Positions 2,169 to 3,898 of a stretch of DNA of 64,000 nucleotides are shown piece by piece. Below the pieces are notes generated by a model, which saw nothing but the letters and a program-made list of their open reading frames with translations, was not told where the DNA came from and searched no databases. Position 1 is the stretch's first letter, and each line of letters starts with the position of its first letter. This DNA is from Candidatus Levybacteria bacterium RIFCSPHIGHO2_01_FULL_41_15 (GTDB taxonomy: Bacteria > Patescibacteriota > Microgenomatia > Levybacterales > UBA12049): NCBI GenBank assembly GCA_001782165.1, contig MFNV01000006.1, positions 444 to 64,443 on the forward strand. The letters are read 5' to 3'. The translations under genes and the position numbers were made by a program.

Positions 2169-3110
2169 ATGATTCAATTGTCTTACACTTATTCGATCAT
2201 CCTAAAAGAGAAACTGCAGCAGATAGAAAGCCTTCGAACAGAAATTCTTCTTTCTCCTCTCTCGCCCAAGATGGAACTTCAGTTAAGATGGGACGCAGTG
2301 GTGGATAAAATTTTTTCATCACTTGACCTTGCTGGATTTTCCGTTTCCAGAAAACAAATCTCAAAAGTTTTATCTCATCAAACAGGTAATCCAAAGCTTC
2401 TTCCTATCGAAGAGGAAATTTTCAACTACAAGAAGGCTTTGGATATTATTTCAAGAGATTGGTTTGTTTCCTCAAGAAGTGTTTCTGTAAAAGACACTTT
2501 GATACTCTATGATACCTTTAATAAAGGTAGGCTAATTCTCCCTCTTTCTCGTATTCAGGAACTTTTGGATTATCTTCAAGCACACAAAGAAAATCCAATT
2601 ATTCAGGCGGGCACTGCCTGTCTTGGTATAGAAAGAGTAAGGCCTTTCTCAGAAGGCAATGATCAACTGGGAAGATTTCTTGCTTACCTTTTTCTATATA
2701 AGCATGGATATGATGTAAGGGGGCTATTGGTTTTTGAAAAAAACTGGAGCAAAGATAAAACAACATATTTGGATGCATCAAGAATCGGGATGAATGCAGC
2801 AAGCATTACTCTATGGCTTGAGTTTTTTGCAAATAGTGTTGTTTCCCAGCTTAATGAAACAATTGGGAAAATAAAAAGTCAGAATCCTGATATTATAGGT
2901 CTTGATAGTTCCTTTTGGGATATTAACGAAAGACAGAAGGAAATTTTAATTTTGCTTGACCAACCCAACAGTACCATAACCAATAAAAAAGTACAAAAAT
3001 ATTTCAAAGTATCTCAAATTACAGCATCGCGTGATTTATCCAAATTATCAACTCTAGGCCTAGTTTTTACACACGGCAGGGGCAGATCGGTATACTATTC
3101 TAAGGTATGA
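2169..3110 (+). CDS. Fic/DOC family protein with C-terminal winged HTH; catalytic motif degenerate ([12 protein letters not shown] instead of HPFx[DE]GNGRxxR)
   Basis: Fic_N-like N-terminus, core motif [25 protein letters not shown]-terminal w[21 protein letters not shown]. Confidence 0.55.
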
Positions 3111-3898
3111 AATTAATTCTCAATTTTAAATTTGAAATGAATAGAATCTTAGCGCTGTTTTTTATAATTTTTTTATTTGTAGCTGTGGGGCTAGCTCTTG
3201 CCCAAAACGTTTCAACGGGAATTGCTCTGCCAACTACAATTGCTGATAAAAATATAAAAGACGGATCCATAATAACTGCTACTTTAAAAGGATATGGGCT
3301 TAGCACTTATGCCTATGATCCATCTCTGTATGGGGTAGTTACACTTAATCCGGCTGTTTCTCTTAAAAACAAGAGCAAAGATACCTATCCCGTAATCTCT
3401 TTCGGAAAAACTCTTGTCAGAGTATCAACAATCAATGGACCCATAAAGGAAAATGATCTTATTGCAAGTTCCTCTATACCGGGTGTTGGGCAAAGAGCTG
3501 ATATGAATGGCTTTGTCCTGGGAATCTCGCTTGAAGACTATACCAATAACGATCCAAATGCAATTGGACAAATTATGATATCTATTGATCCGCATTACAA
3601 TGCTACCTTTGTTGCAGTTAAAACCAATCTTGTGCAAAATCTGAAGGCAATTGCCGGAGCTCCCTTACTGTCCCCTCTTACGACGCTTAGGTATCTTTTG
3701 GCAGGATTGGTAGCCATAGCTTCATTCATTCTTGGGTTTATCTACTTTGGGAGAATTGCGCGAACAGGAGTAGAGGCATTGGGAAGAAATCCCTTGGCAG
3801 CAAGAATGATTGAGCTTGGAATTATTATTAATGTTCTTTTGACAGCAGCAATTATACTTGTTGGGGTTGGCATAGCTTATTTAATCTTAATTTTGTAA
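3107..3898 (+). CDS. Secreted/membrane protein: signal peptide, ~190-aa extracytoplasmic domain, C-terminal two-helix hairpin with a loop resembling ATP synthase c-subunit ([13 protein letters not shown] vs EGAARQPE)
   Basis: N-terminal hydrophobic [19 protein letters not shown]; C-terminus [67 protein letters not shown]. Directly precedes atpF. The conserved helix-2 carboxylate is not at the canonical spacing, so not called atpE. Confidence 0.45.

Follow-up and report, generated by a model that had tools for sequence, protein, structure and literature searches.

Background

In mycoplasmas, Type 2 and Type 3 'F1-like X0' gene clusters lack subunits a, c, b and delta and encode ATPases, not synthases, that are coupled to surface functions (Béven et al. 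2012, PMC3369863; Berlureau et al. 2026, PMC12994834). The Type 2 (G1) ATPase drives gliding of M. mobile, and Type 3 is required for MIB-MIP antibody cleavage (PMC3369863, PMC12994834). A component of these clusters, 'Protein 5' (MSC_0620 / MMCAP2_0577 / MMOB1650), combines a signal peptide and a large ectodomain with two transmembrane segments, joined by a short loop, at the C-terminus (PMC3369863, PMC12994834). Here we analysed a 64,000-nucleotide stretch (the window) of contig MFNV01000006.1 from Candidatus Levybacteria bacterium RIFCSPHIGHO2_01_FULL_41_15, a member of the Candidate Phyla Radiation (CPR). It holds an F-type ATPase operon in which the gene directly upstream of atpF, at 3107-3898, encodes an unusual fused c-like subunit, termed FUS.

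Nearly all Patescibacteria/CPR genomes are scored 'F-type ATP synthase present' though they lack a respiratory chain, which has been called surprising (PMC11665869). An odd 'putative c subunit' was noted in the ATPase operons of WWE3 RAAC2, OP11 ACD38 and ACD24 by Kantor et al. (2013, PMC3812714). Their account of the complete WWE3 RAAC2 genome gives a single ATPase operon, of FUS type, with unrecognisable 'a, b, c', and no other ATPase genes (PMC3812714). That 2013 remark is all we found in the literature on a CPR F1-like ATPase or a carboxylate-less c subunit. By our analysis FUS, mentioned once in 2013 and never analysed, is the hallmark of an atypical F-type ATPase that is widespread in the CPR. 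It is probably the membrane subunit of a non-proton-coupled, ATP-hydrolysing enzyme facing the cell surface.

Anatomy and topology of FUS

FUS comprises the following features (aa, amino acids; +, plus strand).

3107-3898, +: FUS, the fused c-like subunit gene; 263 aa with signal peptide, exported beta-domain and c-type hairpin
3107-3202, +: Sec signal peptide, aa 1-32, read directly from the sequence; predicted cleavage after A30-L31-A32, before Q33
3215-3601, +: predicted exported beta-barrel domain, aa 37-165; phage pre-neck-appendage / Peptidase_G2 / XM1-gp53-like
3602-3673, +: helical linker, aa 166-189; low model confidence (predicted local distance difference test, pLDDT, ~60)
3674-3787, +: hairpin helix 1, aa 190-227; equivalent to the inner helix of subunit c
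3785-3793, +: cytoplasmic loop R227-N228-P229; counterpart of the RQP/RNP loop of c-rings
3800-3892, +: hairpin helix 2, aa 232-262; equivalent to the outer helix of subunit c
3830-3832, +: codon of N242, a newly conserved mid-membrane polar residue
3845-3847, +: codon of A247; Ala stands where c subunits have their essential ion-binding Glu/Asp

The mature protein is predicted to begin QNV after an AxA-type cleavage site, and sites of this type are kept among FUS homologues (e.g. FAQ, ALAQ, AQA). An AlphaFold2 model built from a 54-sequence alignment had a mean pLDDT of 88.9, with helices 190-227 and 232-262 meeting at G226-R227-N228-P229. Both the open reading frame (ORF) and this model agree with a first description made from the letters of the window, the sequence-only reading, which had placed a signal peptide and a C-terminal helix-loop-helix in a 263-aa ORF directly upstream of atpF. 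The soluble domain, put there at ~190 aa, proved to be shorter, at ~130 aa plus a linker of ~25 aa. The same reading had called the protein secreted; export of the domain holds, but free secretion does not, as the hairpin anchors FUS in the membrane. In c subunits the N- and C-termini lie outside the cell and the loop is cytoplasmic. With its signal peptide cleaved, FUS is modelled in the corresponding orientation: N-terminus out, loop in the cytoplasm, C-terminus out.

The hairpin is a divergent homologue of subunit c

The FUS hairpin is truly homologous to F-type c subunits, though it has diverged from them very far. Aligned by hhalign against canonical c subunits of Chloroflexi and Patescibacteria, its profile matched with 93.8 % probability (E = 1.7e-7, 49 columns). 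Against the PDB, six of the seven matches of the hairpin profile were c subunits, the best being that of Chloroflexus aurantiacus (E = 0.0066). Fold comparison gave the same answer. Foldseek placed the hairpin on the Chloroflexus c subunit at 28 % identity, a root-mean-square deviation (rmsd) of 1.2 Å and a template modelling (TM) score of 0.88, and the c chains of 9itt, 9itm and 6n2d lay at rmsd 1.2-1.5 Å and TM 0.82-0.88. Matched c chains spanned Chloroflexus, PS3, chloroplast, mycobacteria and E. coli (rmsd 1.2-2.2 Å, target TM 0.70-0.88). FUS thus has the two-transmembrane helical hairpin with the c-subunit fold. All c alignments agree on one register, free of gaps between the RxP loop and the C-terminus, in which FUS G253 pairs with a conserved Gly. 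Because sequence profiles and fold comparison recover the likeness independently, and always in the same register, it is more than chance.

Single-sequence searches were far weaker. Pfam gave no match for the window FUS protein, and NCBIfam returned c-subunit models at E = 0.02, with 14.7 bits against cut-offs of 71-122. Among its relatives, c-subunit models were the commonest families (9 of 54 members in Pfam, at E 0.0014-1, and 16 of 30 in NCBIfam), always below threshold, and several family members carry the Joint Genome Institute annotation COG0636. FUS does not reach the curated threshold for F-type subunit c (PF00137 / TIGR01260), and the remote homology is recovered through profiles only. 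Identity of the hairpin to canonical CPR c subunits is only ~28-33 %; canonical CPR c is ~70 % identical to Chloroflexus c. The hairpin is nevertheless the best-conserved part of FUS, with a mean column identity of 75 % vs 49 % overall. FUS is thus outside PF00137 by threshold and by the defining carboxylate, yet clearly descends from that family.

The sequence-only reading had offered a divergent or fused rotor subunit and an unrelated membrane protein as alternatives. The former gains from the c homology of the hairpin, its atpE position and its tight linkage to atpF across 84 loci; the latter is rejected on profile, fold, register and operon evidence. Its third option, a decoy, is taken up below among the very unlikely readings. 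A C-terminus without profile hidden Markov model similarity to c subunits had been named there as a point that would tell against a c-like identity; similarity was found, though below the Pfam threshold.

Loss of the ion-binding carboxylate

The residue that carries H+ or Na+ in every working c subunit is the Glu/Asp of helix 2. Alignments to 9itj_H, 2wie_A and 3v3c_A put this Glu at FUS A247, 18 residues after P229. Residue counts were made on 178 distinct FUS hairpins. In the A247 column we found I 55, A 47, V 36, L 26, G 11 and M 1; these six commonest residues, none of them acidic, account for 176 of the 178. The sole acidic residue of helix 2 in the window protein is E236, near the cytoplasmic end. 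FUS consequently lacks the essential mid-helix Glu/Asp that defines subunit c, and the absence of a correctly spaced carboxylate, already noted from the window alone, can now be assigned to A247.

Other hairpin positions are strictly kept. The R-N-P loop is invariant in all 178 hairpins, in keeping with the R-Q/N-P loop of subunit c, and GRNPE is also present in Chloroflexus and canonical CPR c subunits. The resemblance that had been drawn between the loop EALGRNP and the c-subunit RQP loop is borne out, GRNP being identical to the Chloroflexus sequence. This loop is the element by which c-rings contact gamma/epsilon. Its invariance argues that docking to F1 is retained. R195 and E223 of helix 1 are invariant as well. 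In helix 1 the GxGxGxG packing motif is gone and is replaced by A199-x3-A203-x2-S206-x3-G210-F-x2-F-G215 (AxxxAxxSxxxGFxxFG). The N242 column holds N in 170 and H in 8 of the hairpins, and T246 lies on the same helix face, forming a conserved polar stripe.

The exported domain is shared with giant surface proteins

The exported domain is modelled as a barrel of the phage pre-neck-appendage/tailspike type. A Foldseek search of BFVD paired it with tail proteins and with entries called 'preneck appendage protein barrel' (E 5e-12 to 1e-9, ~135 residues at rmsd ~2 Å), and its PDB matches were phage capsid decoration proteins and phi29 gp12 (3suc). Sequence matches were below threshold: phrog_19602 (tail fibre) at E = 0.006, Pfam XM1_gp53 in 7 of 54 FUS members and PF11962 (Peptidase_G2) in 1 of 54 (E = 0.11).

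The same domain occurs in large surface proteins, including one in the window.

38364-38666, +: copy of the FUS-type exported domain, aa 799-899 of a 1372-aa surface protein (35970-40088, +)

This 1372-aa protein has integrase-SAM-like N-terminal domains, two transmembrane segments, Peptidase_G2 IMC and K1-lyase_C; its FUS-homologous segment overlaps its own PF11962 / Peptidase_G2 IMC match. In locus L068 a 1462-aa neighbour of the operon is 38 % identical to the FUS exported domain (E = 3e-19). The giant surface proteins start with cytoplasmic DNA-binding-type domains (MerR/HTH_17 or integrase-SAM-like), followed by transmembrane segments. As a separate observation, such N-terminal domains on giant surface proteins appear to be recurrent in CPR. 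The FUS system probably works with the giant surface proteins that have the exported domain in common with it.

The operon encodes a divergent, catalytically intact F1

Downstream of FUS lie six genes for F1 and stalk subunits.

4074-4778, +: atpF-like b subunit; 234 aa, one N-terminal transmembrane segment, ~70 aa longer than usual
4791-5294, +: atpH-like delta (oligomycin sensitivity conferring protein, OSCP); PF00213, 28.1 bits vs a cut-off of 22.3
5291-6772, +: alpha; divergent F1 clade with a short N-terminus, 347 bits vs solved F1 chains
6753-7628, +: gamma; PF00231, E = 6.6e-23
7630-9099, +: beta; catalytic motifs intact, 407 bits vs PDB beta chains
9096-9380, +: epsilon; PF02823, E = 2.3e-10, beta-sandwich domain only, 94 aa

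Delta through epsilon score above Pfam thresholds. Single sequences of the b-like protein fail in Pfam, but in the PDB a profile of 23 b orthologues matched most closely the ATP synthase b subunits of Chloroflexus (E = 2.6e-8), P. aeruginosa and PS3. These Pfam and PDB profile searches uphold the order b-delta-alpha-gamma-beta-epsilon proposed from the window sequence, and the operon thus holds the full b, delta, alpha, gamma, beta and epsilon set of a canonical operon, with catalytic motifs. In beta, the Walker A motif GGAGVGKT is found in 65 of 67 sequences and the Walker B pattern in 54 of 67; the six commonest variants of G[VI]GER.REG also make up 54 of 67. The alpha Arg finger S[VI][ST]RVG is present in all 74 sequences.

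The F1 genes of the FUS operon form their own divergent clade, as judged from sequence by an identity matrix against one canonical operon, L086, which is short of a full phylogeny. Within the FUS-operon clade (Microgenomates and Parcubacteria) beta is 47-65 % identical, vs 39-45 % to the canonical CPR operon L086; for alpha the values are 39-56 % vs 32-34 %. Gamma and epsilon are 21 % and 29 % identical to those of L086. Compared with canonical alpha, this alpha is ~15 residues shorter at the N-terminus, the part that in canonical enzymes binds delta. On sequence grounds, the retained catalytic sites and the RNP loop indicate an F1 that would still hydrolyse ATP, seated on a hairpin oligomer.

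No subunit a or canonical c was found beside FUS

The window was searched for subunit a and canonical c with phmmer --max (queries E. coli a and c, PS3 c, and canonical CPR a and c), with motif regular expressions and with Pfam on polytopic membrane ORFs. Neither was found in the 64 kb, in line with what the sequence-only reading had reported for this stretch. Likewise, no subunit a (PF00119), canonical c or other conserved polytopic membrane protein lay within ±10 kb of 84 FUS loci. At the canonical CPR loci L085-L087 a and c were readily seen, in L086 by the same tools. We infer that subunit a is probably absent genome-wide. With a hydrophobic residue at the carboxylate position and no accompanying a, the canonical Grotthuss-type a/c ion path cannot operate.

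Several candidates were rejected along the way. A weak match to E. coli c at 1025-1165 (+), as a hidden atpE, falls inside a minus-strand surface-protein gene. The polytopic ORFs of the window, considered as a divergent a, are VTT, ComEC, VKOR, SWEET and Wzy-like proteins, besides a 199-aa protein with six transmembrane segments that lacks the a motif. Inserts of 1.7 kb between FUS and b in 7 loci are not a genes but gpmI (phosphoglycerate mutase). FUS relatives of 390-540 aa, considered as a-c fusions, owe their length to a cytoplasmic HTH_17 domain, a linker and a transmembrane anchor. Extra 'alpha' matches in L043 and L059 are Rho. Readings as an N-ATPase, a V/A-type ATPase or a type III secretion system/flagellar ATPase fail on gene order and on best matches, which are F-type; the FUS operon runs c'-b-delta-alpha-gamma-beta-epsilon without a, AtpQ or AtpR, unlike the N-ATPase order atpDCQRBEFAG.

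Two of the window's polytopic proteins may be recorded for their own sake: the 199-aa protein with six transmembrane segments (33168-33767, +), whose sole Pfam match is a chance-level IF3_C (E = 0.093), and a 1303-aa protein with nine (52675-56586, +) and no significant Pfam match.

Published gene tables bear on the same question. In a COG table (Mahendrarajah et al., PMC10656485), AtpB (COG0356) is scored 1 in Curtissbacteria (AtpE 0), Roizmanbacteria and Pacebacteria genomes. The table also gives a 'Saccharibacteria' genome two copies of alpha, beta, gamma and epsilon vs one of a, b, c and delta (PMC10656485), copy numbers which suggest that canonical and FUS-type or other atypical sets can co-exist as paralogues, and hint at the co-existence with a canonical Type 1 F1Fo operon that marks the mycoplasma-type clusters.

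FUS is widespread and its gene order is conserved

A word-indexed search recovered 849 FUS homologues, and an exhaustive profile search 490 clusters (50 % identity) at E <= 1e-30. In a scan of one genome per GTDB species, FUS was found in 290 genomes, which carry the labels WWE3, Levy-, Gottesman-, Woese-, Roizman- and Shapirobacteria or unclassified Patescibacteria. At least 290 Microgenomates species genomes share the gene order. Across the 84 loci it reads (surface protein, minus strand)-(Fic)-FUS-b-delta-alpha-gamma-beta-epsilon.

The gap between FUS and b has a median of 18 nucleotides (nt), and the genes overlap by 4 nt in 7 loci. Such short gaps and overlaps make co-transcription likely in general. 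Some loci carry insertions at this point: gpmI (2,3-bisphosphoglycerate-independent phosphoglycerate mutase, ~570 aa) in L039, L040, L043, L051, L058, L065 and L077, and small 23S-rRNA-IVS-type four-helix or GIY-YIG genes in L017, L019 and L053. While ~75 loci have subunits b and delta, five lack both (L031, L035, L052, L053 and L075) and read FUS-alpha-gamma-beta-epsilon, with an alpha of 472-483 aa; one of the five, L053, lies on the complete Gottesmanbacteria chromosome OY969569.1.

In Sungbacteria, other Parcubacteria and Berkelbacteria, FUS occurs in long forms (390-540 aa; e.g. L088 10001-11326, L089 10001-11329, P0339, P0351, P0357, P0363, P0387), in the same operon and with giant proteins after it. 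In these forms one or two cytoplasmic HTH_17/excisionase-like repeats and a transmembrane anchor replace the signal peptide, leaving the topology the same. This N-terminus is of the same design as that of the giant surface proteins.

Flanking genes and an intergenic hairpin

The immediate surroundings of the operon in the window are as follows.

1-1848, -: surface protein gene; MerR/HTH_17 N-terminal domain, one transmembrane segment, Gly/Thr/Ser-rich repetitive ectodomain; runs off the window
2169-3110, +: Fic/DOC-domain protein, DeoR-type HTH at the C-terminus; stop codon and FUS start overlap (ATGA)
3899-4073, +: FUS-atpF intergenic 175-nt GC-rich, near-perfect long hairpin; minimum free energy -78.3 kcal/mol, z -7.8
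9377-14651, -: galT, three GT4 glycosyltransferases and a WecG-type transferase, directly downstream of the operon

In most of the 84 loci a surface protein gene of the 1-1848 type lies upstream in divergent orientation, and in some a protein of >3000 aa comes after it. The high-GC, ORF-poor first 2 kb had raised the idea of an rRNA or structured RNA; Rfam finds none there, and the region is the surface-protein gene. A Fic gene occupies its position in 27 of the 84 loci. Downstream, galT and WecG recur beside the operon in L003, L004 and L088, much like the 'glycogen operon' noted for WWE3 by Kantor et al. (PMC3812714).

The intergenic hairpin is specific to the source organism: it is kept in its other contigs (L090-L092), absent from relatives, where a 10-nt gap or an overlap takes its place, and unique among the DNA compared. 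No T-tract terminator follows it. A palindromic insertion could account for it, as could a regulatory or processing element. Co-transcription of FUS and atpF, named as a check in the sequence-only reading, is likely in relatives by their gaps; in the source organism transcripts would have to read through this stable 175-nt structure.

Interpretation and alternative explanations

In the reading that we prefer, the F-type ATPase with FUS would be a separate, fast-diverged lineage, widespread in the CPR. FUS would display its ~130-aa tailspike-type domain outside the cell, joined by the linker to the c-derived hairpin, with the RNP loop on the gamma/epsilon docking side. The complex most likely hydrolyses ATP, its c-derived oligomer serving as a proton-blind membrane base that links F1 to the exterior, and this base would probably work with the giant surface proteins sharing its domain. 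We infer that the hairpins assemble into a ring in contact with gamma/epsilon, that hydrolysis is the working direction, and that any output at the surface would be mechanical or conformational; true rotation, torsional strain and plain anchorage are all candidates. Torque would seem to be resisted at some point in most lineages, which keep b and delta; in those that have lost them it would not need to be. The five loci without either count in favour of this reading, the stalk being dispensable in some lineages.

A bolder version is a trans-membrane rotary or torsional motor, in which F1 would burn ATP and turn gamma/epsilon together with a proton-blind FUS ring, whose tailspike crown would engage giant surface fibres. 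Cytoplasmic ATP would then drive movement, attachment and detachment, or remodelling of the host-facing surface apparatus of these epibionts. The gliding and MIB-MIP ATPases of mycoplasmas would be its evolutionary parallels, except that here the c-ring would itself act as the transmission. We regard this version as rather unlikely.

Several points weigh against the preferred reading. The link between FUS and the giant proteins consists in synteny and a common domain, and the comparison with canonical CPR F1 depends on the single operon L086. The search for a and canonical c covered the window and ±10 kb per locus, so that either may lie elsewhere in the genomes, and AtpB is listed in PMC10656485 for some Microgenomates genomes, which may carry this operon type. 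Most lineages retain b and delta. The only role known to us for a peripheral stalk is to hold torque against a stator in the membrane. Ring formation is a prediction, and the GxGxGxG packing motif is missing from helix 1; the complex as a whole is known from genes and models.

Some of these points feed an alternative in which FUS is the rotor of a genuine ion-translocating ATP synthase or ATPase, with a encoded elsewhere and H+ or Na+ carried by an unconventional site such as N242/T246. The b and delta genes of most operons, the conserved Asn/Thr pair mid-membrane in helix 2 and the COG0356 (AtpB) entries for some Microgenomates genomes (PMC10656485) would fit it. Yet the membrane core has no ionisable residue among the 178 hairpins, a is never adjacent in 84 loci, b and delta are lost in some lineages, and the F1 is strongly diverged from canonical CPR F1. 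Every characterised translocating F/V/A-type hairpin that we know of has a Glu/Asp. We consider a translocating rotor distinctly unlikely. FUS might instead be an accessory that joins, caps or regulates a canonical c ring encoded elsewhere (as part of a mixed ring, an assembly factor or a decoy), the real Fo being canonical. Carboxylate-free hairpins are tolerated in the rings of A. woodii (c1) and V-type enzymes, as is generally known, and the A. woodii ring 4bem was among the profile matches. The 'Saccharibacteria' genome with two F1 sets and one a/b/c/delta (PMC10656485) points the same way. This account is very unlikely, however: FUS stands in the place of atpE in an operon that has a divergent F1, b and delta of its own, canonical c was missing from the ±10 kb around every locus, no other ATPase genes are reported in the closed WWE3 genome (PMC3812714), and the hairpin is so distant from canonical CPR c.

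Two further explanations deny the operon or the hairpin any such role. If the operon were a decaying, functionless ATP synthase remnant in a genome-reduced symbiont, one would expect the missing a, the lost carboxylate, the disappearance of b and delta from some lineages, and the selfish elements and gpmI inserted in some operons. Decay is most improbable, though, given intact ORFs in at least 290 species genomes and the 490 clusters, the column identity and invariant loop residues of the hairpin, the kept catalytic motifs, the well-conserved exported domain and maintenance of the system in two CPR classes. That FUS is an unrelated bitopic membrane protein, c-like by chance or by convergence of hydrophobic helices, would suit the weak single-sequence matches (none in Pfam for the window protein, E = 0.02 in NCBIfam). 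It is scarcely credible in view of the profile-profile match, the gapless common register including GRNP and the conserved Gly, the fold match at 1.2-1.5 Å and the fixed position in atp operons.

Significance

A surface-facing, ATP-hydrolysing complex would change how these genomes are read. The alpha and beta genes behind an 'ATP synthase present' score belong to a distinct machine in at least 290 Microgenomates species genomes, as well as in Parcubacteria and Berkelbacteria. If this is true, proton motive force generation or ATP synthesis inferred from FUS-operon genes would be wrong for those lineages, and they would join the mycoplasmas as the second example of F1 being co-opted along with a non-canonical membrane sector. 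The FUS-type ATPase suggests that a large group of ultra-small bacteria burn ATP via a surface-linked 'ATP synthase' rather than make it. How the membrane sector arose can still be read: a phage-derived surface domain was joined to a c subunit. The Levybacteria gene opens onto a family spanning two CPR classes and hundreds of species, beyond the scope of the sequence-only reading, as were the divergent F1 clade, the tailspike-type module common to FUS and the neighbouring giants, and the mycoplasma precedent.

Comparison with known systems

FUS shares its helix-loop-helix and topology with F-type c subunits (AtpE, PF00137; Chloroflexus aurantiacus 9itj/9itt; canonical Patescibacteria c, e.g. 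P0238), together with the GRNP loop, a Gly 6 residues after the carboxylate position and a gene directly upstream of atpF. Unlike AtpE, it has a hydrophobic residue for the Glu/Asp, no GxGxGxG, a fused signal peptide and 130-aa domain, and no a upstream. In c1 of Acetobacterium woodii and in V/A-type proteolipids, carboxylate-free hairpins within a duplicated c can be built into a rotor ring. Those neutral hairpins are a minority beside active ones and work against subunit a, whereas in FUS all are neutral and no a is seen. The exported domain shares its fold with the barrel of the phi29 gp12 pre-neck appendage (Peptidase_G2) and with the decoration proteins of XM1 (gp53), Pam3 and BB1. Unlike these phage barrels, it is not part of a virion but is fused to a membrane hairpin.

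The 'putative c subunit' of Kantor et al. (2013) and FUS are almost certainly the same gene family; a WWE3 locus (L059) is among the FUS matches. That work gave the gene one paragraph, which does not cover the c homology, the lost carboxylate, the exported domain, the missing a, the F1 clade or the spread to Parcubacteria.

Among known systems the mycoplasma F1-like X0 ATPases are the nearest functional analogue. As an analogy, the distinct, fast-evolving and catalytically intact F1 resembles the mycoplasma Type 2/3 ATPases. Like the F1-like X0 clusters, the FUS system has divergent alpha, beta, gamma and epsilon in a genome-reduced, host-dependent bacterium, with no a or c genes. It also forms a divergent F1 clade apart from the phylum's canonical F1, by the identity matrix with one canonical operon. 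Both have an alpha with a reduced N-terminal helix and adjacent surface effector proteins. Unlike the mycoplasma type, the FUS system keeps b and delta in most lineages and the classical atp gene order, and it lacks the Protein 1 with 12 transmembrane segments and the cytoplasmic Protein 2 (no conserved polytopic protein was found in 84 loci). By published descriptions, not by sequence comparison, the architecture of FUS is like that of Protein 5. It differs from Protein 5 in its small (130 aa), phage-tailspike-type ectodomain and in a hairpin that is demonstrably c-derived.

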